Origin: an uncultured Clostridia bacterium
Lineage (GTDB): Bacteria; Bacillota; Clostridia; UMGS1883
DNA: 64,000 nucleotides
NCBI GenBank assembly: GCA_947626145.1
Contig: CANQRB010000004.1
Location: 29,250 to 93,249, forward strand
Reading direction: 5' to 3'
The translations under genes were made by a program, and so were the position numbers. This document shows positions 7,826 to 62,235 of the stretch, one piece after another (within the stretch, counting starts at the first letter, position 1; every line of letters starts with the position of its first letter). The notes beneath the pieces are model-generated. The model ran no database searches, had not been told where the DNA came from, and saw nothing but the letters and a program-made list of their open reading frames with translations.

Positions 7826-7879
7826 TTTTGTTACCTCCTTAAAATTTTGCTAAAAAATAAATCCTCGATTTCATGCGCA

Positions 7880-7905
7880 CTTCCTATAAGAAATGCTATC
7901 GGAAG
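7880..7905. promoter_or_regulatory. 26-nt hairpin/palindrome in the 5' UTR of the large surface-protein gene (copy 1)
   Basis: cttcctataagaaatgctatcggaag is the near-reverse complement of the perfect palindrome at 8188-8213. It lies 55-80 nt upstream of the ATG at 7825. Confidence 0.45.
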
Positions 7906-8022
7906 TAAATTTATGCCGTTTTACGGCAATATTTACAACATAAAAATGAAAATTAGAAATTATTTGTTGAAATTGCACAATTACTCACAACAATTTTGTA
8001 CATTATGGATAAGGGAAAGATA

Positions 8023-8052
8023 TTGACTTTTTTATGGCAAAAGTAGTATAAT
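8023..8052 (+). promoter_or_regulatory. Near-consensus sigma-A promoter (TTGACT-18-TATAAT) with no adjacent coding gene
   Basis: -35 TTGACT at 8023-8028 and -10 TATAAT at 8047-8052. The next convincing plus-strand CDS starts 420 nt away. Confidence 0.5.
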
Positions 8053-8059
8053 TAGATTA

Positions 8060-8283
8060 TAAAATTTCATGTGCCGATCATAGGAAAGCCTCGGAAAAAG
8101 GCCGTGTTAAGCCGGATTTGCCCGGTTGACGGCGCAGAGGTCGACTGCAAAGCCAGCCTTGGAGCGATGAATGGCCGCTCGGTTTTACTTCCGATAGCAT
8201 TTCTTATCGGAAGTTCGATGAAATCATACAAAAAAGCACCTGTGACAAGCTCTTTATCGTGAGCTTGCCGCAGGTGTTTTTTT
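8060..8283 (+). ncRNA. Candidate ~220-nt structured transcript (sRNA or cis-regulatory leader) between the orphan promoter and a strong terminator
   Basis: Several internal stems, including the perfect palindrome cttccgatagcatttcttatcggaag (8188-8213). It ends in a 16-bp hairpin + T7 at 8237-8283. The only ORF (8071-8262) has no RBS and a non-protein-like composition. Confidence 0.3.
8237..8283 (+). terminator. Strong Rho-independent terminator
   Basis: cacctgtgacaagctc-tttatcgt-gagcttgccgcaggtg followed by ttttttt. Confidence 0.7.
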
Positions 8284-18244: not shown

Positions 18245-20366
18245 GATTGTAACCTCCAATTTTATTTATTCACTTTCTAATTGCAGGAAAACACCGCCAC
18301 TGTATGTCACGCCCCCTTTTGGGCGAATTTGTCCTCCGTACAATAAAAAATGCGCAGCTCATCGGAGCCGCGCACGAAAAATGCTTAGCTCCGAATTTAC
18401 TGCGACATAAATTAATATAACACAAAAGAAACGCATTTTTGGCACTCGCTCATTAAAAATGCAACCAGAGCGTTACAGGAGCAGCATTTTTACCAATGCT
18501 AATGTTGCTCCGGTTAGCACTTTTATACGTTAGAATGTTAAAACAATGATAGAAAATATAGGTACTCAAAAAAGAGCGCAAAAAGCGAACTTAATAAGCG
18601 TTTCTATATTAATCTATGTCGCAAATAAAGTATACCACACATTTTTCCGGTTGTAAAGTGTTTTTTTTTCGTAAATGAATAATTTTTTATAACATATTCG
18701 CCGCGAAACCCATCTAGGCGCTTATCTTGCTGCTGAACGGCTCCCCGACTGTTTTACAAAAGAGTCGAACATTGCACAAATTCGTTCTTCGTAGGAAGGA
18801 GCTGCCACAACATTTCCCTCCTTTTGCTAAAAATTGTTCTTGGTCGGTTTTCCCCCCCTTTGTAATACCGGAACAATTTAAGTTATACAAAATCGGAAAT
18901 TTTTTTAAATTATCTGAAAAAGTCAAAATAAAAAGGACAGATTAATATCTATCATTCTCAGTATTCAATTACATCGCCTTTAAAAATCCCCTCCGGCGCA
19001 TGAGGGGGTTTACGCCGGAGAAAATTTTATATATCAAAGAGGCCCGTGCCTCTTAATTTTTGCGGCCGGTTATGCCTGAGTCGCGGCGTCCGTCTTGACT
19101 CTGCGGAAGCGCACCAGACCCGTACGGTGAAGGGCAACCATTATTGCCGGGATAAGCACAAGTTGAAGTATTATTCCGGGGATGGCGTTAAGCACCGCAG
19201 TCTGCGCAGGACAAAAAACCTGAAAAGATGTCGATTTCGCCTGACTTTGTTGGTCTATGTTGCATGGCGATCCGCTTCTGTGCAAGCTCAAAGATTTCTT
19301 CGTCAATTAACGGCTCATGCGTATTAGGTAAGAAATAGCGTTGTTCTGCCTCTTTTTCGACTTATACGAAACCTTGTGTGTTTTCTCAGTGATGATATGC
19401 CCTAAATACTTTTACCGTGTCAGGATGTCAAACAGCGTTTTCTCCGGCCATGTGTAAGGAGCGATCAAGGCTTTCTGATGTCGCGCATTCCTCGTCCGCT
19501 CATAACGTAATGCACCGATTGTCAAAACCTTGTTGTCGTCAAGCCATCGCTGAATATCGCACATCTGAGTATCCTTCACATACATGACGAAAATCTGCTT
19601 GACTATGAGATGTATCCGTATGGATATTCCCCGTTGACGTGCTCGCCCTTTTGAGTCCGCGCCTGCTTTGCGGCTCGGTGGTTGTCGCTCGGCATATTCT
19701 CTCGGATATGTGTCATGGCACACCCGCCGTATGGCTCGGCGCAAAAGGGATGTGTCCTTTGTTGCTGTTATGATGCCTCGCTGTTATCTTGCGGGCAAAT
19801 TTGTCGAGGTTCGTACAGATGGGGAGTATCGGAAAGGGGGATTTATGCGCCGCTCCAGGTCGTCGGGTCAGTTCACCTGAAAAGTCAGAATTTTTGTAAT
19901 GAGCTTCGTTTCCAGTCTGCTGATCTTCGTCTACGCACAAATGAGGATTGCCATACTCGTCGTTTTCGATGTACACTGTATGATCCAGAATACCGAAAGC
20001 CCTGTCCTCTTTGAAATAACTGTCTCAGACTGAAAGCTGATTCATTACTTCAACAGGAAATTCGACAAAGAAAATCGCCTGCCTGCACATGGCAGGCGGG
20101 CGAAACGGAACTAACAGAAGTATTTACGTGATTTATGTGTTCATCTTCCTCGGCAGGGTATCCCGCTTGCTGGGTCAGACTTCTTTTGAGCGAAGAACCA
20201 TTGCCGGAATTTGTCGATATGGAATAGGCTTCATGGCGGCTACCTCCTGTTAGCCGCCATACCTGTTAGCCTGCAGTTTCTTCCCTTGTATCAAGAGAAA
20301 TGGCAGCCTATGAAAAACAAGCATATAACCAAGAGCAGCAGTATATAGGCTCTGCGTCTATGCGTC

Positions 20367-20530
20367 TTACTCTTTTACAACCTCGATCCGTAGGTGTTCC
20401 TCGTTAATCAGCGTTTTGCGTTTGCATTTGGGACAATACAACGGAAAGTTCTCCAGAATGGTATCTTCCAGTATTTTAATTCGTGTTTTGCTTTTACAAA
20501 CAGGACACAACACCAAAACGCTTTTATTTA
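20367..20530 (-). CDS. Cysteine-rich KTR-domain small protein (~50 aa), likely from a mobile-element backbone
   Basis: Minus-strand translation LCPVCKSKTRIKILEDTILENFPLYCPKCKRKTLINEEHLRIEVVKE matches the Cys_rich_KTR family (two CxxC pairs). The start is probably GTG/TTG. Not in the ORF track (short). Confidence 0.4.
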
Positions 20531-22368: not shown

Positions 22369-22403
22369 ATGATAGCAGAGAAATCTAAACTGAAACGAAA
22401 CTG
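22369..22403 (-). promoter_or_regulatory. Conserved promoter module, copy 1 (TTTCAGTTTAGATT box + TGC-TATCAT)
   Basis: Minus-sense GTTTCGTTTCAGTTTAGATTTCTCTGCTATCATGA. It lies upstream of the scar and of the 21988/21340 genes. Confidence 0.55.
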
Positions 22404-22414
22404 TCTTTTTTCTT

Positions 22415-24692: not shown

Positions 24693-24724
24693 ATGATAGC
24701 AGAGAAAACTAAACTGAAACAAAA
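24693..24724 (-). promoter_or_regulatory. Conserved promoter module, copy 2 (upstream of the SAS-GT8-pgsA operon)
   Basis: Minus-sense GTTTTGTTTCAGTTTAGTTTTCTCTGCTATCATTA. The -10 is ~70 nt from the start codon. Confidence 0.55.
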
Positions 24725-24818
24725 CAACGACGGACCCTTCGAAAAAGAAGAATCCGTCTGACCGCTTTACGGCGGAAGTAATAAACTAATTTTATAACCA
24801 TTTCGCAAGTTGACTGTA

Positions 24819-28688: not shown

Positions 28689-28722
28689 ATTTTACAGCAA
28701 GAATCTAAACTGAAACGAAACT
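28689..28722 (-). promoter_or_regulatory. Conserved promoter module, copy 3 (upstream of the zinc-ribbon/DUF/J-domain/Hsp70 operon)
   Basis: Minus-sense GTTTCGTTTCAGTTTAGATTCTTGCTGTAAAATTT. The -10 TAAAAT is ~40 nt from the ATG. Confidence 0.55.
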
Positions 28723-28928
28723 AAGGAAGAGCTTTCTTCCAGACTATTTTTTCGGTAAGTTCAGTTCTGATAGATTTACTGAATAGCCGCAGAAGTCATA
28801 GACCTACATAAAAAAGAACCTCCACAACGAAGGCTCTCACGGTAAATCTCATATTGGAAGCGGCAGTATGCCTCACAGCACACTGCCACTTTACGCTTCT
28901 CATGCTTAATTAAATGTCCCGCACTATT

Positions 28929-29845: not shown

Positions 29846-30940
29846 TCAGTTTTTCTGGCTTTCTTCTTCTGCATTTAGCTTTGATTTCGGCAATGTAACC
29901 GTAAACATGGTAAGATTGTTTTCGCTTTGAACCGAAACCGTTCCGTTGTGCAATTCCACCACTTTTTTGACAATTGCAAGCCCGATTCCGTTTCCCTCAC
30001 CGGAGTGTGAACTGTCAGCCTGATAAAATTTCTGAAAGATTCGTGATATACTTTCCGCAGGAATTTCCTCTCCCGAATTGATGATATCCACGGACAGGGA
30101 AGACGGTTGATTTTTAATATTGACTTCAATGACTCCTCCAGCGGGAGAAAATTTGATCGCGTTATCCAGCAGATTGATCCACACCTGTTTCAAAAGCTCC
30201 TCATTGGCAGAAATCCTGTATTCACCGAAATCCACTTTAAAGTCCAGTTGCTTTTTTTCCCACTTGTCGGCAAGCAACAGGATGGAAGACCGGATTTGTT
30301 CTGAAAGGTTAAACTTTACAACATCCGTTAAAATCGTTTGATTTTCTACCCGCGTCAGATTCAACACGTTTGTCGCCATATCAGAAAGCCGCAGAGATTC
30401 TTCTTCGATAACCGCCAAATATTCCCCTTTTTGTTCTTCTGTCAGGTTGCCTCGGCGAAGCAGCTTTGCAAAGCCGGCAATAGATACGATGGGCGTTTTG
30501 AATTCATGCGAAAAATTATTTACAAAATCCCCACGAAGCATCTCTGTATTTTTGAGTTCAGAAGCCATTCGATTGAAGCTGTGCGAAAGCTGCGAAAAAG
30601 TAGGATGTTTGGATATGGGCCATCCGAAATCCAATCGGGCACTGAAATCACCGGATGCCAGCCGATCGATTTGATAAATTACATTCCGCAGGGGGCGGGC
30701 GGATATTTTACTGGATAAATAGGCAACAATGACACCGACAATATTACTGATGACGATCATGTAGAGGATGATAATACCGATGTTTGATCGGATATCGGTA
30801 TCAAGCGTGACAACTTGAAAATGTACCAGCATATAAATAATAGAAGCGGTTATTGAAGTAATAATAAATTGAATGAAAAAAATAAGTGTCGATATTAAAA
30901 ACGTGAGCGCAAAATAATGTTTTCGATTTTGTTTGTTCAT
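29846..30940 (-). CDS. Sensor histidine kinase (two N-terminal TM helices, HisKA, HATPase_c)
   Basis: H-box FSHEFKTPIVSIAGF, N-box LLDNAIKFSPAGG, G-boxes GEGNGIGLAIVKK. Overlaps the regulator gene stop. Confidence 0.9.
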   Translation of the reverse strand: MNKQNRKHYFALTFLISTLIFFIQFIITSITASIIYMLVHFQVVTLDTDIRSNIGIIILYMIVISNIVGVIVAYLSSKISARPLRNVIYQIDRLASGDFSARLDFGWPISKHPTFSQLSHSFNRMASELKNTEMLRGDFVNNFSHEFKTPIVSIAGFAKLLRRGNLTEEQKGEYLAVIEEESLRLSDMATNVLNLTRVENQTILTDVVKFNLSEQIRSSILLLADKWEKKQLDFKVDFGEYRISANEELLKQVWINLLDNAIKFSPAGGVIEVNIKNQPSSLSVDIINSGEEIPAESISRIFQKFYQADSSHSGEGNGIGLAIVKKVVELHNGTVSVQSENNLTMFTVTLPKSKLNAEEESQKN

Positions 30941-31611
30941 ACTTTTTTCACCGCCTTATATCCGAGCCCGCGCACGGATTCGATATCAAATTCTTCCCAA
31001 CCCTCGAACCGTTTGCGGAGCCTGCCGATGTGAACCGTCACAGTTTCCCACCCGGTATCGCTCTCAGCGCCCCAGATTTCATCCATCAGTTGAATCCGTG
31101 TAAAAATCTTTCCGGGGTATGACAGCAATTTATAAAGTAACAAAAATTCCTTTTGCGGGAGTTCTTGTGTCTCGCCGTTTTTGGTCACGGTAAAGGAATC
31201 GTAATCCAAAATTACATTTCCAATCGTCATTTTACGTTCGTTGGCAATTTGAGCGCGGCGTAGAAGTGCTTTGATTCGCCAGAGCATTTCTTCCTCATCA
31301 ATCGGTTTTGTCATGTAGTCGTCAATCCCTAATGAAAAACCTTTATGTTTATCTTCGGGGAGCTGTTTTGCCGAAACCATAAGAATGGGAAGATTGTTCT
31401 TGCTTTCGCGGAGGATTTTTGTAAATTCATATCCGTCCATTTTCGGCATCATTATGTCGAGAATCACAAGGTCAATATACTCTTTATCCATTACATCGAG
31501 GGCGTCTTCACCGTTTTCCGCAGTAAATACAGAATAGTGCTCCGTTTCAAGCACGGCTTTGAGCAGCCGGCGTGTATTTTTATCGTCGTCTACAACAAGA
31601 ATTTGGAACAT
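30937..31611 (-). CDS. OmpR-family response regulator
   Basis: Receiver domain VVDDDKN...DLVILDIMMPKMDG plus a winged-helix C-terminus (GYEFTK...RGLGYKAV). Confidence 0.9.
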   Translation of the reverse strand: MFQILVVDDDKNTRRLLKAVLETEHYSVFTAENGEDALDVMDKEYIDLVILDIMMPKMDGYEFTKILRESKNNLPILMVSAKQLPEDKHKGFSLGIDDYMTKPIDEEEMLWRIKALLRRAQIANERKMTIGNVILDYDSFTVTKNGETQELPQKEFLLLYKLLSYPGKIFTRIQLMDEIWGAESDTGWETVTVHIGRLRKRFEGWEEFDIESVRGLGYKAVKKV

Positions 31612-31642: not shown

Positions 31643-31675
31643 AAGATAACATACAAATCTAAACTGAAAAGAAAG
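31643..31675 (-). promoter_or_regulatory. Conserved promoter module, copy 4 (upstream of the response-regulator/kinase/TauE operon)
   Basis: Minus-sense CTTTCTTTTCAGTTTAGATTTGTATGTTATCTTAT. The -10 TATCTT with TGT is ~30 nt from the ATG. Confidence 0.55.
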
Positions 31676-32096
31676 TGTGCGAGTTTAATCCCCAAAATTT
31701 ATTATTTCGTTCAGCAGGCTTTTTCGCGTCTTTGAGCAACAGCCACATCTTTCCCATTTTATCGACTCCTGCAATACGTCCGGCAAAACAGTAATAATTT
31801 AATCATGCGGGGAGAGATACCCCATTTTTCGCTGCCTATTTGAACGTCATGTAATTAAAATATCGCACCTCCACATATAAAATTATATTTCGTTATCTTG
31901 AAGAAAGCAAGTGCATTTGATGAACATTAGATGAATTATTTACCCTCGCTACTGAAACTGTAAAGACATATCCAAATAAAGAAAGGGACTGTAAAATGGA
32001 TCAATTTCAATAAAGCGGACAGAAAAACATAAGATGGCAGGAAATTATGTAAAATATTCAATATCCATATTTCTCATAAAGTATATCACATAAAAA

Positions 32097-32318
32097 TCAT
32101 AAAAGATATTTGTCTTGATTTTCGATTACATATTGAAGCCATTCCTCTGGAGTAGGAATGTCGTTTGAAGATGGTATTTTTTTCCACTGTGCTCTAATTT
32201 CAGGATTTGAACTGGTCATTCCAAATTTTATTCGCTCTGAAATTATAACTTTAATTTCGTCAACCGTCATATTCCTTTTCTCAGCTATTTCGGCTAATGT
32301 TATTTTTATCTGTTTCAT
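32097..32318 (-). CDS. Small hypothetical protein (73 aa), divergent from the XRE regulator
   Basis: AGGAGG RBS 6 nt upstream. MKQIKITLAEIAEKRNMTVDEIKVIISERIKFG. Confidence 0.55.
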   Translation of the reverse strand: MKQIKITLAEIAEKRNMTVDEIKVIISERIKFGMTSSNPEIRAQWKKIPSSNDIPTPEEWLQYVIENQDKYLL

Positions 32319-32472
32319 GGACCGCCTCCTATTAATTTATTGTTTGTATTATTCCATAATATAACCGTATGCCCTTTGCGGGGCGTATATAATCTACTGA
32401 TTATGACTATTATATCACATTTTTGTGATTTAGAATAGTATTAATAGAAATTATTTTTAGAAGGTTATCTTT

Positions 32473-32787
32473 ATGGATGTACAAAAGCGCATCAGGTAGT
32501 TGATGGCGGAAAGAGGCTGGTCAGACTATAGGCTTGCAAAGGAGTCCAACCTCTCTCACTCAACTATAACGAATATATTCAACAGAAATAACGCCCCAAC
32601 GCTGCCAACATTGGAGTCCGTATGTTCCGCTTTGGGGGTAACCATGTCACAGTTTTTCACTGAAGGCGACGAACCCGTTGTGTTGAGCAGCGAACAAAAA
32701 ATAATACTTGATAGGTTCAACACGTTATCACCGACTCAGAGAAAAGTCATTATTGAACTGCCTGGCAATATGAACAAAGGCACATGA
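32473..32787 (+). CDS. XRE-family HTH transcriptional regulator interrupted by an in-frame TAG at codon 9 (alternative start TTG/ATG at 32500/32503)
   Basis: MDVQKRIR-TAG-LMAERGWSDYRLAKESNLSHSTITNIFNRNNAPTLPTLESVCSALGVTMSQFF is a canonical HTH_3. The TAG at 32497-32499 would be CAG in an intact IRQLMAERG helix 1. Confidence 0.6.
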
Positions 32788-32837
32788 TGTCATAACAAGA
32801 CAGAGACCGGTCGATGAGCTTTTTTCGACATTGCTAA

Positions 32838-32871
32838 AAAACCTGCATACATTTCTGTGTGCAGGTTTTTC
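32838..32871 (+). terminator. Rho-independent terminator after the XRE gene
   Basis: aaaaacctgcatac-atttctgt-gtgcaggttttt. Confidence 0.6.
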
Positions 32872-32879
32872 AAATATAA

Positions 32880-32995
32880 AAATCTAACGATTACTCAATA
32901 ATCCAACGATTACCCCAAAAAACTAACGATTTCCCATAAAACCAACGATTTCCCATAAATCCAACGATTTCCCATAAATCCAACGATTACACGGC
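32880..32995. repeat. Iteron-like tandem array: six copies of a 19-20-bp unit (consensus tCCAACGATTtcCCATAAA)
   Basis: AACGATT cores at 32886, 32905, 32925, 32944, 32963 and 32982. The last three units are near-identical. There are no spacers, so it is not a CRISPR array. It lies between the XRE terminator and tRNA-Ser. Confidence 0.7.
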
Positions 32996-33153
32996 GGCGA
33001 GTTAGGATGGATAATTTCCGAAAAGCAAAAACTGCATTTATTGCCTCCGTAAGGTGCGGAAAAATTATGCCGACCATACAAAAAAGCCGATAATATCGGC
33101 TTTTTTGCACAAAGAAAGAACCTTGACTTTGTATCAAAATCAAGGTTCTTATT

Positions 33154-33244
33154 TGGCGGAGAGAAAGGGATTCGAACCCTTGATCGGGGTTAACCGATAC
33201 ACGATTTCCAGTCGTGCGCCTTAGACCAGCTCAGCCATCTCTCC
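33154..33244 (-). tRNA. tRNA-Ser (anticodon GGA)
   Basis: Minus-strand GGAGAGATGGCTGAGCTGGTCTAAGGCGCACGACTGGAAATCGTG...long variable arm...GGGTTCGAATCCCTTTCTCTCCGCCA. 7-bp acceptor stem, CTGGAAA anticodon loop, class II variable arm, encoded CCA. Confidence 0.85.
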
Positions 33245-33368
33245 GCGCTGACAAACGGTATTATAGCACATATTTTGCCGTTTGTCAAGGACTTTTTTCA
33301 ATTCTTATATCAAAAATTTATATCTTATATCAAAAATTTAAACAAAATTTAGAAAAGAATTAGGAAAA

Positions 33369-53153: not shown

Positions 53154-53423
53154 TTAACCCTTATTTTCTCCGTGTACATCCTCAAACGGTTTGGGGCAGT
53201 CAGGGTCAAGGTCACAACAGAACAGAAGAAATTCCGAAGAACTGGGTGAGTTTTCTTTTATAAACTCTATCATTTTTTGTGCCGTGCCAAGCCTTTTTGC
53301 GTCTATGCACGCACCTATTTCAAGGCCCTCATAACATCTCGGTATTGTCCTGACCCATTTTAACAGCTCCTGAAATTCTTCCCGCTCAAGCAGCGGGACT
53401 TTTTTCGTTTCTTTATTTTTCAT
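53154..53423 (-). CDS. Small Cys-containing hypothetical protein, paralog A (89 aa)
   Basis: Start at MKNKETKKVPLLEREEFQELLKWVRTIP. ~70% identical to the upstream paralog. The track's N-terminal extension is rejected. Confidence 0.6.
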   Translation of the reverse strand: MKNKETKKVPLLEREEFQELLKWVRTIPRCYEGLEIGACIDAKRLGTAQKMIEFIKENSPSSSEFLLFCCDLDPDCPKPFEDVHGENKG

Positions 53424-53676
53424 TTTGTATATCCTCGAACGGTTTGGGGCGTTTGGGGTCAAGGCCATAACAGAACAAAACGAGTTCTGAAGAGCTGGGG
53501 GAGTTTTCCTTGATGTAGTCAACGATTTCCTTCGTCTTGCCAAATTTTTTTGCTTCTATGCAAGTACCTATTTCAAGATCCACGTAACAGTCCGGTATCG
53601 TTCTGACCCACTTTAACAGCTCCTGAAATTCTTCCTGCTCAAGCAGCGGTATTTTTTTCGTTTCTTTATTTTTCAT
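53413..53676 (-). CDS. Small Cys-containing hypothetical protein, paralog B (87 aa)
   Basis: MKNKETKKIPLLEQEEFQELLKWVRTIPDCYVDLEIGTCIEAKKFG...SSSELVLFCYGLDPKRPKPFEDI. No signal peptide. Overlaps paralog A's start by 11 nt. Confidence 0.6.
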   Translation of the reverse strand: MKNKETKKIPLLEQEEFQELLKWVRTIPDCYVDLEIGTCIEAKKFGKTKEIVDYIKENSPSSSELVLFCYGLDPKRPKPFEDIQNEK

Positions 53677-53730
53677 TATTTATCATCCATTCTTAAACAT
53701 TTTCAATGCGGCAAATCGGGCCTTACCGGC

Positions 53731-59566: not shown

Positions 59567-62235
59567 AAGCCTCCGTCGCTTACGACCTCGCCGCCGGAAG
59601 GAGCGGTTCCGCCGCCGTCACCGCCGCCGGAGGGAGCCACGCTGCCGCCGCCACCGCCGGAGGGCGTTACACTGCCGCCGCCCGAAGGCGTTACGCTGCC
59701 GCCACCGCCGCCGGAAGGTGTTACGCTGCCGCTGTCGCCGCCGCCGGAAGGCGTTACGCTGCCGCTGTCACCACCGCCGGAAGGCGTTACGCTGCCGCTG
59801 TCGCCGCCGCCCGAAGGCGTTACGCTGCCGCCACCGCCGGAGGGTGTTGTGCTGCCGCTGTCGCTGCCGCCGGAGGGCGTTGTGCTGCCGCTGCCGTCGC
59901 CGCCGCCGGAGCCATCACCGCCCGCGGGCTCGGCGGAAACCGTTTCGCCGCCTTCGCCCGAGGTCGTTTCGCCTGAGCCGGAGCCGGAGCTTCCGGAATC
60001 GTCATCATCGTCGGAGCTGCTGCCGGAACTCGTATTACGCCTTGACGACGAGCCGCTGCTGCTTGTCGCCTTGCCCTCGCTGAGGACATTCTTGCTGCCG
60101 GTCACAAGGGGATGGAGCTTGCAGCGCGTAGTGGGGATGCTGCCGCTCTTGAAAATCTGACTCTCCACACGGTCACAGCCCGGATTGGCCCGCTGTCCGC
60201 TGTCGGAGCAGATCATCACCGAGACCTCCTTGCCGGGTCTCTCGAAATCCTTATATTTCAGATCCTCGTGAATGGGCATCATCACCTTGCGCCAGGTGAG
60301 GGCCGCCGGGTTGGAAGAAAATCCGCTGAGGTTCCGGGGCTGGTCATAGCCGAACCACACCGCGCCCACATAATAGGGTGTCATACCCACGAACCAGCGG
60401 TCATTGCTGGTGGTGGTGCCGGTGGTGCCGGTCTTGCCGGCTATTTCCATTCCGCTGAAGTTGGCCATCTTGCCGCTGCCGTAGCTGACAACGTCCTTAA
60501 GCATCGAGATCATGTCGGCGGCGGTCTTTTCGCTCATGGCTATCTCATGGGTGGGCTCGCCGCTGAGGATAACGCCGCCGTTGGCGTCCAGCACCCTGGT
60601 GTAAAGGGTGGGCTTGTTGTAAAAGCCGTCGTTGACAAAGGAGCAGTAGGCCGCCGTGAGCTCAAGCACGCTGACGCCGTCGGTAAGGCCGCCGAGGGCC
60701 AGAGGCGCCAGATCCTTATCGGAGAAGGTCTTGCCGTTGCGCTCCTCAAAATCCACAAGGGTGGAAATGTGCATACGCTCGGTCATATAGTCGAAGGAAT
60801 TGTCCACGCCGAGGTAACGGCACACCTTGACGGCGGGCACGTTACGGGAATTGGCAAGGGCGCTGCGAACCGAAACGTTGCCCACAAAGCGGTTGTCCAC
60901 GTTTTTCGGGGACCAGCCGTTATAGGTGACGGGGGCGTCCTTTACCGTGGAGGTGGGCGTTATGAGGCCGTATTCCATGGCCGGACCGTAAACGCCGATG
61001 GGCTTGATCGTGGAACCCGGCTGGCGCAGGGACTGAGTGGCACGGTTAAGTGTGAGGTTGCCCTCCTTATCTCCGCGTCCGCCCACAAGGGCCTTTACCT
61101 GGCCGGTATAGGGATCCATTATGACCATGGCGGACTCGGGCTGTACCTCGCCCCTGCCCTTGGGGAACGCCGACTCGTCGGCGTACACGTCGTCCATGAT
61201 CTGCTGGAGGTTCATATCCTGAGCCAGATATATCTTGAGGCCGCCGTTAAATAGAACGCGCTGGGCTATATCCTTTGTATAGTTATACTGGGTCATAAGA
61301 TCGTCAATGATCTGGTTTATGGCCGCGTCAACATAGTAGCTCTGATAAACTATCTCATCCTGAGTCTTAAGGGGCACAAAATGGAGCTCCTGCGCCACGG
61401 CATCCTCATACTGAGCCTGAGTGATGTGGCCCAGCTCAAGCATTTTTCCAAGGACTACCTCCTGCCGCTCCTTATTGTTTTGGGGATTTGCGTAGGGGTC
61501 GTACTTGGAAGGGGACTGGGTTATGCCGGCTATGCAGGCGCACTCGGCCAGAGACAGCTCCGATACGGGCTTGCCGAAATATACGTTGGCCGCCGAGGAA
61601 ACGCCGTTGCACTGCTGACTCAGGAAAATGGTATTAAGGTAATATTCGAGGATTTCTTCCTTGGACAGCTCATCCTCCAGCTTGAAGGCCCGGTATATCT
61701 CCTGAATTTTTCTTTCAACGCTGTAGCCCTTTTCGCCGGTAATGTTCTTTATGAGCTGCTGTGTCAAGGTGCTTCCGCCGAAGGTACGGTCGCTGGTGCC
61801 CCTGATCTTGCCGTAGACATAGGTTACCGTCGCGCCTATGGTACGCTTGATGTCAACGCCCTTATGGCTCCAGAAGCGCTCGTCCTCAATGTCAATGAAG
61901 GCGTTCTGAAGGTCCTTGGGTATATCGTCAAGGTCCACCCAGATGCGGTTTTCGTTGTCATAGAGCCGCTGCACCTCAACGGTGTTGCCGTCGGGGTCGG
62001 TGCCGTAAACAAAGGACGTCATGTTCAGCTTTATGTTGTTCACGTCGATGGTGTCCACGGTCTCAACATAGCCGAACAGGGCTCCCGCCACTATACCGGC
62101 GCCGATAATGCCGATGAGCAGCACAATGAGCAGCAGCGCCAGAAAGACGTTCCTGAACGACAGGAGAATCGCCATTCCGACGCTTCTCTTCTTTTTGCCG
62201 GAAGAGGTTCCCCTCCGAGTTCTGTCATTTGCCAT
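59563..62235 (-). CDS. Class A penicillin-binding protein (PBP1A: transglycosylase + transpeptidase) with a C-terminal Gly/Ser/Pro-rich repeat tail
   Basis: Start at MANDRTRRG with GGAGGTG RBS. GT51 motifs (EDERFWSHKGVD, GGSTLTQQ). TP motifs SxxK (STIKP), SxN (SRN), KTG (GKTGTT). ~170-aa tail of SGGGDSGSVTP repeats. Confidence 0.9.
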   Translation of the reverse strand: MANDRTRRGTSSGKKKRSVGMAILLSFRNVFLALLLIVLLIGIIGAGIVAGALFGYVETVDTIDVNNIKLNMTSFVYGTDPDGNTVEVQRLYDNENRIWVDLDDIPKDLQNAFIDIEDERFWSHKGVDIKRTIGATVTYVYGKIRGTSDRTFGGSTLTQQLIKNITGEKGYSVERKIQEIYRAFKLEDELSKEEILEYYLNTIFLSQQCNGVSSAANVYFGKPVSELSLAECACIAGITQSPSKYDPYANPQNNKERQEVVLGKMLELGHITQAQYEDAVAQELHFVPLKTQDEIVYQSYYVDAAINQIIDDLMTQYNYTKDIAQRVLFNGGLKIYLAQDMNLQQIMDDVYADESAFPKGRGEVQPESAMVIMDPYTGQVKALVGGRGDKEGNLTLNRATQSLRQPGSTIKPIGVYGPAMEYGLITPTSTVKDAPVTYNGWSPKNVDNRFVGNVSVRSALANSRNVPAVKVCRYLGVDNSFDYMTERMHISTLVDFEERNGKTFSDKDLAPLALGGLTDGVSVLELTAAYCSFVNDGFYNKPTLYTRVLDANGGVILSGEPTHEIAMSEKTAADMISMLKDVVSYGSGKMANFSGMEIAGKTGTTGTTTSNDRWFVGMTPYYVGAVWFGYDQPRNLSGFSSNPAALTWRKVMMPIHEDLKYKDFERPGKEVSVMICSDSGQRANPGCDRVESQIFKSGSIPTTRCKLHPLVTGSKNVLSEGKATSSSGSSSRRNTSSGSSSDDDDDSGSSGSGSGETTSGEGGETVSAEPAGGDGSGGGDGSGSTTPSGGSDSGSTTPSGGGGSVTPSGGGDSGSVTPSGGGDSGSVTPSGGGDSGSVTPSGGGGGSVTPSGGGSVTPSGGGGGSVAPSGGGDGGGTAPSGGEVVSDGGF
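59590..59900. repeat. Tandem ~33-nt coding repeats (GGxDSGSVTPS units) in the PBP1A tail
   Basis: About 9 near-identical units, gaaggcgttacgctgccgc(tg/ca)tcgccgccgccg. A likely slipped-strand/recombination-prone tract. Confidence 0.8.

Follow-up and report, generated by a model that had tools for sequence, protein, structure and literature searches.

A tandem repeat array at the tRNA edge of a clostridial low-GC island and its relatives in islands with short serine recombinases

The DNA analyzed here, called the window throughout, is a stretch of 64,000 nucleotides from an uncultured Clostridia bacterium (GenBank assembly GCA_947626145.1, contig CANQRB010000004.1, positions 29,250 to 93,249 of the forward strand). 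A low-GC block occupies ~4.2 to 33.15 kb of the window (GC ~0.36-0.49, compared with ~0.58 outside) and ends at a tRNA-Ser(GGA) gene, in whose 3' flank lies a tandem array of six short direct repeats. An earlier reading of the sequence alone, referred to here as the sequence-only reading, had noticed the block, the array and its position beside the tRNA gene, and these descriptions were borne out by the analysis (Table 1). Sequence comparison shows the array to be the homologue of a subterminal array found on the tRNA side in a family of islands at the CCA ends of tRNA genes, and its orientation and position agree as well. The array is most plausibly part of the integration/excision apparatus of the element.

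The six units of 19-20 bp follow one another head to tail without spacers. The AACGATT cores (plus strand) are located at 32886, 32905, 32925, 32944, 32963 and 32982 (span 32886-32988), giving core-to-core distances of 19/20/19/19/19 bp. Tandem Repeats Finder (TRF) returned a period of 19, 5.8 copies, 86% matches and a score of 136. The 18-mer CCAACGATTTCCCATAAA occurs exactly at 32942 and 32961 and with one mismatch at 32923. When up to three mismatches were allowed, all matches to this 18-mer in the window fell inside the array, with 0.1 matches expected, and the observed count was reached in 0/100 shuffles. The pattern YYAACGATTWC gave 7 matches in the window vs. 0.3 expected, and six of the seven are inside the array. 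The motif is strictly positional, not the genome-wide dispersed repeat that would have spoken against the sequence-only reading. In the orientation of the element, the minus strand, the unit consensus is AATCGTTRG-N4-5-TGGGR. The unit most distal to the tRNA (32880-32898) is a 'half' unit consisting of the core alone. The units are direct repeats and have no dyad symmetry. The first core lies 169 bp from the CCA of the tRNA, and the array is enclosed by terminators, with two hairpins toward the tRNA and the terminator of an XRE-family gene on the other side. Near the array, Rfam matched the tRNA alone, and no Rfam match was obtained at the far boundary of the window.

The edge of the island is the CA of the CCA encoded by the tRNA gene. 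The same module was recovered from other assemblies by exact-protein look-up, and loci L007-L012 carry copies of the window class. The module follows tRNA-Ser(GGA) in L007 and also in L024, which is another host with a different host promoter. In L008, the identical sequence follows another, truncated tRNA-like 3' end. In these three host contexts (window/L007, L024 and L008) identity begins exactly at CCA/AATAAGAACC, where the slash marks the junction. The sequence AATAAGAACCTTGA is window-island sequence, joined either to tRNA-Ser or to the L008 fragment. Since the shared DNA starts exactly after CCA in differing contexts, the hairpins are mobile DNA, as is the array, with the CA of CCA as the junction; in the window, tRNA and element meet between 33154 and 33153. 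The window and L007 have 6 units, while L008, L010, L012 and L024 have 5. Substitutions among the window-class arrays were found only outside the AATCGTTRG core and never within it.

Genome and metagenome collections were scanned for three AATCGTTRG cores at 19-20-bp spacing, and the comparison extended to ~30 related loci in about a dozen lineages. The islands are hosted by Oscillospiraceae, Ruminococcus and other Clostridia and have a common anatomy. The tRNA gene ending in CCA is followed by A(A/T)TAAG and a terminator hairpin, an unrelated spacer of ~160-200 bp, 3-7 units (CGTT..N5-6..RTGGG), often a recombinase gene, and cargo. The left junction pattern, CCA/N0-2 A(A/T)TAAG plus terminator hairpin, was seen at 12 loci, and the window conforms to it with CCGCCA/AATAAGAACC and the hairpin at 33116-33150. 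In L026, tRNA-Val is followed by a hairpin homologous to that of the window and 7 units. In L022, tRNA-Leu(TAG) is followed by CGATAAG, a hairpin and the array, and in L037, tRNA-Leu(CAG) is followed by a hairpin like that of L022 and 5 units. A tRNA fragment, CATAAG, a hairpin and 3 units make up the corresponding end in L052, and L032 has 5 units. A recombinase gene comes after the array in L022 and L037; L026, L052 and L032 have no adjacent recombinase gene.

The units at L022, L037, L026 and L052 are of the form AATCGTTGGATT(T)ATGGGG. Loci found through the recombinase protein, described below, contributed three AATCGTTGGATTATGGG units on the tRNA side of L055 and five 21-bp units of the form CGTTAAAATTATGGGGGTAAT on the tRNA side of L062 and L071, where the diverged unit CGTTAAAATTATGGGGG follows tRNA-Ser(GGA) and tRNA-Leu(CAG), respectively. 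All array classes, the protein-first loci L062 and L071 included, share CGTT-N5-6-RTGGG, while other positions differ. The protein-first loci escape the bias of a DNA pattern and show CGTT-N5-6-RTGGG to be the part common to the classes. No unit departs from the AATCGTTRG core; near-identical relatives differ in the remaining unit positions and in copy number. The 9-mer ACGATTTCC is common to the anticodon arm of tRNA-Ser (33201-33209) and units 3-5 of the array (32946-32954 and 32965-32973 among them). This sharing was judged to be a coincidence because the same array family also adjoins tRNA-Leu and tRNA-Val genes.

A first pattern scan of viral sequences (AACGATT three times at 19 bp) returned unrelated tandem repeats only. 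Many matches of the refined scans (L020, L021, L025, L027-L031, L033-L036 and others) were unrelated repeats of other phyla and were set aside. When positions 32000-33160 were compared by blastn with 72,556 plasmids and 50,697 phages, no match was found.

In 5/12 loci the left end of the element abuts a truncated tRNA 3' fragment (e.g. L008 5090-5185, L059 9395-9435, L052 215-263 and L066 9395-9430). This arrangement points either to islands accreting in tandem at tRNA genes or to insertion into tRNA-3'-like remnants of other integrative elements. A structured-looking conserved segment (...GCAACAGTCCGGTGGACTGTTGC...GACGGCTYGACGGAG...) was also observed at L068 2080-2230, L067 5600-5725 and L066 18010-18130. 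It has a tRNA-3'-like end (...GTACCA or ...CCCCTGC) and abuts or lies near element junctions. The L068 copy, the one searched, had no family in Rfam.

The position of the array relative to the junction was then compared between lineages. The first core is at +169 bp in the window, L008 and L024, at +159 bp in L026, at +160 bp in both L037 and L052, at +177 bp in L055, at +184 bp in L022 (+165 bp if a degenerate unit is counted) and at +200 bp in L062 and L071. The distance therefore stays within 159-200 bp in seven lineages, and the spacers of different lineages are identical to one another only at the level of shuffled sequence. Measured from the array, the next recombination gene lies 88-429 bp away, and the window, L026, L032 and L052 are without one. 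The steady distance to the junction and the variable distance to the gene indicate that the array is placed relative to the crossover and not to a promoter.

The gene that follows the array in L022 and L037 encodes a protein with a Resolvase (PF00239) and a Recombinase (PF07508) domain. A search at E<1e-20 gave 2893 homologues, and the top 120 are mostly 283-302 aa in length and conserved over the full length. The protein aligns with the first half of CcrB-type large serine recombinases, the best NCBIfam match covering CcrB residues 4-269, indicating that the short recombinase (~285 aa) is without the zinc-ribbon/coiled-coil part. An open reading frame (ORF) of 104-118 aa with the Recombinase domain alone precedes most of the short-recombinase genes. 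The cargo of these islands consists mostly of defence genes, namely type I restriction-modification, NERD and Schlafen-type helicases, TIR, PIN and HD.

Seven further lineages (L055, L059, L062, L066, L067, L071 and L074) were fetched through the protein alone, and a tRNA-side array was present in three of them (L055, L062 and L071). As a control, a profile search of viral contigs was employed, which gave 80 relatives, all of them classical large serine recombinases of 400-600 aa; a single-protein search of the viral contigs with P0008 found no match. At the control loci, a 15-25-bp tandem array within 900 bp upstream was found in 0/80, and a 17-24-bp array anywhere (693 kb) in 2/80. By comparison, tandem arrays were present in 5/7 of the protein-first short-recombinase lineages (5/7 vs. 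2/80, Fisher p=1.1e-5). The array density was 4.4 per 100 kb for the short-recombinase loci and 0.29 per 100 kb for the control. The arrays are a property of short-recombinase elements.

The ends of the element could be compared directly in L062 and L071, where one and the same element occupies two different tRNA genes. Its left ends begin CCA/AATTAAGTGGACGG and the right ends finish ...CCCTTTCACA/, followed at each locus by its own terminator hairpin. The CA alone is common to both junctions, and the ends are precise on both sides with no duplication. Sharing of the CA alone is the prediction of serine-recombinase crossover, so that the native tRNA terminator, displaced by the element, is now at the far end. 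Furthermore, both copies have a second array 35-50 bp inside the far junction, made of the 22-bp unit GTGAACCCATTTTCTATAAAAA in 5-6 copies in L071 and 4 copies in L062. In inverse orientation, the AACCCAT block of this unit corresponds to the ATGGG block of the tRNA-side units.

Far-end arrays were also seen in other lineages. L022, the minimal relative, is a compact element of ~3.4 kb that contains only the recombination genes and one helicase-like ORF; it has six ATTTTAACCAC units before ...CACACA/ and a terminator. Six AAAACGACCCCCCTAGGG units precede ...TTACACA/ in L066, and about seven GTTGCATTTnAAAA units precede ...TTGCCA/ in L074-78. The unit sequence of the far-end arrays (L022, L062/L071, L066 and L074-78) is specific to the lineage, while the period of 21-22 bp and the position 35-50 bp inside the junction are conserved. 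The far ends of several elements fall outside the DNA compared. Two orphan units of the tRNA-side type, TCGTTCAATTTATGGGGTATCGTTAAATTTGTG, were observed at L071 16440-16510, just past the host terminator behind the far end. They probably remain from an earlier element in tandem, in which case arrays outlive elements.

The features surrounding the array in the window are collected in Table 1.

Table 1. Features of the window at and near the repeat array, and recombinase remnants within the low-GC block.
Feature	Position	Strand	Basis or remark
Decayed classical large serine recombinase, with frameshifts and stops	19090-19750	-	Motifs HEPLIDEEIFELAQKR and FSGFLSCADCG
Cys_rich_KTR small protein gene	20367-20516	-	Adjoins the decayed large serine recombinase
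Perfect palindrome ATCACA-TTTT-TGTGAT	32414-32429	none	Divergent promoter region of the XRE gene and a 73-aa ORF; overlaps a promoter-like site
XRE-family helix-turn-helix gene	32473-32787	+	Ends 93 bp before the array
XRE gene terminator hairpin, ACCTGCA...TGCAGGT then T run	32841-32870	none	Read from sequence; bounds the array on the side away from the tRNA
Repeat array, six direct 19-20-bp units	32880-32995	- (element orientation)	Sequence reading, TRF, motif scans
Spacer from hairpins to array	32996-33079	-	Sequence lineage-specific
Second hairpin, bidirectional-terminator-like, AAAAAAGCCGATAATATCGGCTTTTTT	33080-33106	none	Read from sequence; kept in L007, L008 and L024
First bases of the element, AATAAG and 16-bp-stem terminator hairpin (hairpin 33116-33150)	33116-33153	-	Terminator scan and relatives
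tRNA-Ser(GGA), integration target	33154-33244	-	Crossover at the CA of the encoded CCA
tRNA-Ser promoter, perfect TTGACA-17-TATAAT	33260-33288		Upstream of the tRNA

The ORFs of the island were scanned with Pfam, PHROGs and NCBIfam. They encode surface proteins, an extracytoplasmic function (ECF) sigma factor, an ABC transporter, a ParE/Phd toxin-antitoxin pair, glycosyl- and phosphatidyl-transferases, a RelA/SpoT protein, a DnaK/DnaJ/DUF5685 set, a TauE permease and a two-component system, in addition to the 73-aa ORF and the XRE protein. The scans found no intact integrase, replication initiator, primase, relaxase or partition protein among them, and no transposase. The region from 18.3 to 20.7 kb is non-coding apart from a decayed large serine recombinase and a Cys_rich_KTR gene, and the presence of these two indicates that the low-GC block is a mosaic of element remnants. 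The decayed recombinase is the remnant of a different mobile element, outside the short-recombinase family to which the arrays are linked. A Recombinase-like fragment at 19412-19744 was considered as a relic of the small Recombinase-domain protein and was rejected, as it is part of the decayed classical large serine recombinase.

No short-recombinase homologue was detected in the window by tblastn with six family members as queries, and no far-end array was found there. The tRNA shares no 12-mer with the rest of the window that could represent an att-type direct repeat. An empty site was sought through the far-side host gene, and the sole contig found has the same arrangement. The island's own recombinase was sought through the DUF1269 protein; all contigs were collinear and none carries a recombinase. 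A look-up through the Cys-rich KTR protein gave no record.

Several other repeats were observed in the window. Within the island, inverted repeats of 34 nt (94% complementary) at 7876-7909 and 8184-8217 flank 274 bp (7910-8183) that hold a strong promoter, TTGACT-18-TATAAT (8023-8052, plus strand). The segment lies ~50 bp upstream of a gene for a 1034-aa surface protein (start 7825, minus strand) and is also upstream of the ECF sigma operon (8472, plus strand). From its sequence it looks like an invertible promoter switch, a candidate that now faces the sigma operon; there is no adjacent invertase gene. A box with 14 contiguous invariant positions (minus strand GTTTCGTTTCAGTTTAGATTT) occurs four times, at 22371-22404, 24695-24728, 28691-28724 and 31645-31678. 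Each copy is upstream of a minus-strand operon, and one of these operons holds the gene of the OmpR-type response regulator itself (30937-31611). The four boxes probably represent the operator set of the regulon of that two-component system within the island. Outside the island, a 253-bp tandem repeat in two copies (81% identity) is present at 53173-53677 and a GC-rich block of 33/66-bp repeats (~7 copies) at 59589-59905. The sequence-only reading had also placed an 18-bp duplication at 33304-33338 in the same interval as the array. The duplication is real, being a perfect 20-bp repeat in 1.9 copies at 33303-33340, but it lies 5' of the tRNA, where the promoter is and thus outside the island, and does not belong to the same functional interval.

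The preferred explanation, to which a probability of roughly 0.5 is assigned, is that the array is the tRNA-proximal subterminal array of an integrative island, with units that would act as arm-like docking sites for recombination proteins. The islands would insert by simple crossover at the CA of the tRNA-encoded CCA, and occasionally at other ...CA sites, and would supply the tRNA with a terminator hairpin of their own. The short recombinase, usually with the small Recombinase-domain-only protein, is encoded by intact relatives, which also have arrays close to one end or to both. Excision would yield a circle in which the tRNA-side and far-end arrays flank the crossover site (attP). Each unit, with its CGTT and RTGGG blocks, is a putative docking site. 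With ~10 bp between the two blocks and another 9-11 bp to the next core, all blocks would face the same side of the helix, an arrangement known from cooperative nucleoprotein filaments. The arrays may function as arm-type or accessory sites that assemble and orient the synaptic complex, possibly with an additional role in directionality or autoregulation, and they could stand in for the missing zinc-ribbon/coiled-coil domain. Because the window has neither the short recombinase nor a far-end array, its own array would be an orphaned remnant or, at best, a cis site that only a related recombinase provided in trans could use.

A number of observations weigh against this explanation. The protein partner, which may be the short recombinase, the small Recombinase-domain protein or a host factor, is inferred from association alone, and approximately half of the arrays (window, L026, L032 and L052) have no adjoining recombinase gene. 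The whole window island is present at two junctions without an intact recombinase, so that a trans-acting enzyme must be assumed. Among the protein-first lineages, no tRNA-side array is present in L059, L066, L067 and L074. Moreover, no far-end array was seen in L055 and L067, and the far end could not be located in L059 and L067. Arrays are thus not obligatory at each element end. Additionally, the tRNA-side and far-end units of one element are only loosely alike. Core invariance is partly a product of the search at several loci, whose arrays were retrieved with a DNA pattern in which the core is fixed.

The possibility was considered that the array is bound by a transcriptional regulator instead of by recombination proteins. 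An operator or roadblock array, at which a repressor or activator encoded by the element or the host controls the promoter of the recombinase operon or insulates the island from read-through out of the strongly transcribed tRNA gene, would make the window copy a relic. Where the recombinase gene is present (L022, L037, L055 and L071) the array does lie 88-146 bp upstream of its start codon, and in L074 a core copy of the far-end unit (TTGCATTT) overlaps the -35 of the recombinase-operon promoter. The res sites of Tn3/gamma-delta also serve as operators. However, the position of the array is fixed to the crossover and not to the gene, half of the arrays have no recombinase gene beside them, the far-end arrays are downstream of the genes next to the junction, and the window array is enclosed by terminators. 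To our knowledge, the core fits no operator consensus such as cre, the Spo0A box or the DnaA box. Regulation of this kind is unlikely as the primary function, and an operator of the recombinase promoter is a possible additional role that fits poorly with the geometry and the far-end arrays. The proposal of the sequence-only reading that the array binds the adjacent XRE regulator fared worse. The XRE gene adjoins the array in all window-class copies (window and L007-L012), but none of the related arrays in eight other lineages (L022, L026, L032, L037, L052, L055, L062 and L071) has an adjacent XRE gene, the units lack the dyad symmetry of an XRE/Cro-type operator, and the array is downstream of the XRE terminator, between terminators and not in a promoter region. 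Furthermore, the XRE gene has an in-frame TAG in the window (32497-32499) where relatives L010 and L011 have CAG (Gln); as gene-called, the protein is N-terminally shortened to 94 aa in L007-L009 and L012 and has 104 aa in L010. The perfect palindrome in the promoter region of the XRE gene is, on sequence grounds, a likelier candidate for its operator than the array. The XRE gene is a neighbour of the array and not a conserved partner, and binding of its product to the array is very improbable.

Explanations that require no regulator were also evaluated. The array could be a functionless minisatellite that arose by slippage in the non-coding end of the island and hitch-hikes with it. Copy number does vary (5 vs. 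6) among near-identical relatives, assemblies break at the array (L009 and L024), orphan units persist after loss of an element, as in L071, and the window array is without its cognate recombinase. Slippage would not account for the invariance of AATCGTTRG in all units while other positions drift, the retention of CGTT..RTGGG between otherwise differing classes with L062 and L071 included, the junction distance that is conserved despite unrelated spacers, or the strong enrichment of arrays at short-recombinase loci relative to controls, and this explanation is considered unlikely. Purely structural DNA, in which phased A/T tracts cause an intrinsic curvature that aids looping near att with no dedicated protein, is less probable. 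Each unit does hold one A/T tract (TTTAT, TTTTTT or AAAATT) at a period of 19-22 bp, but the period is 19, 20, 21 or 22 bp depending on the class, indicating that helical phasing is not conserved, and conservation falls on the G/C-containing CGTT and TGGG rather than on the A/T tracts. Finally, iterons or a centromere-like site would provide the origin or partition site of the excised circle, bound by an initiator or a ParR-like protein. Iterons and pSK41-type parC typically consist of head-to-tail repeats spaced about two helical turns apart, the six units of 19-20 bp amount to the three or more direct repeats of 17-22 bp by which iterons are recognized, and in the circle the arrays would flank an A/T-rich hairpin region. 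Against this, initiator, relaxase and partition genes are absent from the scans of the window island and from the ~3.4-kb L022. DnaA boxes (TTWTNCACA) occur at chance level in the window, and the one nearby match lies within a terminator T-run, so that the expected accompaniment of iterons is missing. There is also no similarity to plasmid or phage records by blastn, and the arrays are associated with element ends and a recombinase family. A role as iterons is accordingly quite improbable. The suggestion of the sequence-only reading that this is a replication or excision control region is therefore retained in part. An end of the island with the same boundary in L008 and L024, and with homologous arrays 159-200 bp from CCA, fits recombination most plausibly, and the replication part finds no initiator, relaxase, DnaA-box excess or plasmid or phage match.

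Seen as docking sites for recombination proteins, the arrays are of a known kind, namely the accessory or arm sites of site-specific recombination, and no published description of the architecture itself was found. The arm-type sites of tyrosine integrases (lambda attP P/P', Tn916 and mv4) and tandem sites for Xis/recombination directionality factors are likewise element-specific direct repeats, present in both arms of attP at distances of tens to ~250 bp from the crossover. Integration leaves them subterminal at both island ends, and such integrases also target tRNA 3' ends. The repeats of the window are inside the element and 169 bp from the crossover, as arm sites would be. Repeats on the far arm and a recombinase of its own are lacking in the window; far-end repeats are present in L022, L062, L071, L066 and L074, and the recombinase in relatives. 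However, the recombinase here belongs to the serine family and has no arm-binding N-terminal domain, arm sites are 9-11 bp long and irregularly spaced while the units here are head to tail with a regular period of 19-22 bp, and attL and attR share a core of 7-50 bp in tyrosine systems but the CA dinucleotide alone here.

Among serine recombinases, the accessory sites II/III of res (Tn3/gamma-delta resolvase and Sin) and the enhancers of invertases are extra sites beside the crossover and next to the enzyme's own gene, and such sites may impose topology or direction as well as autoregulation. The res subsites are inverted-repeat dimer sites on one side that serve resolution, whereas direct repeats on both arms and integration into tRNA genes are seen here. 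The large serine integrases (phiC31, Bxb1, TnpX and CcrAB) have homologous catalytic and 'Recombinase' domains, a 2-bp-type crossover and no long repeats. They differ in their length of 400-600 aa with zinc-ribbon/coiled-coil, compared with ~285 aa, an often separate Recombinase-domain partner and arrays in the family described here. Serine integrases act on sites of <50 bp without accessory DNA (PMC1470463).

Other systems show a more limited likeness. Plasmid and phage iterons have head-to-tail repeats of 19-22 bp with an invariant core, but here there is no initiator gene, DnaA boxes or unwinding element and the position is tied to island ends. The ends of Tn7 and Mu, with multiple transposase sites of ~22 bp, resemble the islands in having unequal arrays of ~20-bp sites in opposite orientation at the two ends and insertion downstream of a conserved gene. 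They differ in that no DDE transposase, target-site duplication or TGT...ACA termini at the tRNA side are found here. The window island, which keeps one end with cis sites, has no cognate recombinase and occurs at two junctions, is also similar to cis-mobilizable elements (CIMEs), which are flanked by att sites and lack their own recombination genes. In the window, however, the far-end site was not identified and mobilization in trans is a supposition. Gin-like small serine recombinases have been linked to defence genes in a study that did not analyze att sites, tRNAs or repeats (PMC13552941). The full-text literature, with subscription journals outside the coverage, contained no account of a short Resolvase-plus-Recombinase family that targets the CCA ends of tRNA genes, and none of serine-integrase att sites accompanied by repeat arrays.

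A broader proposal is advanced more tentatively than the docking-site explanation. The short recombinases, together with the stand-alone Recombinase-domain protein, may constitute an uncharacterized integration system at tRNA CCA ends that would depend on repeat arms on both sides of attP for synapsis and directionality, unlike all characterized serine integrases. The window array would be one such arm, and its island would be movable only in trans. Serine integrases are valued for genome engineering because of their short att sites and because no accessory DNA is needed. If the proposal is correct, a family of ~2900 homologues in gut and rumen Firmicutes, which is without the domain for site selection and directionality, would have arrived at a scaffold-based solution by means of arrays beside att, and this would account for the single-dinucleotide precision of many tRNA-linked defence islands in Clostridia. 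The junction signature (CCA/ATAAG-hairpin ... array at +160-200) offers a means of delimiting islands of this type, and the remnants they leave orphaned, in metagenome-assembled genomes. For the window, the array shows where the low-GC island, a non-autonomous mosaic, truly ends.

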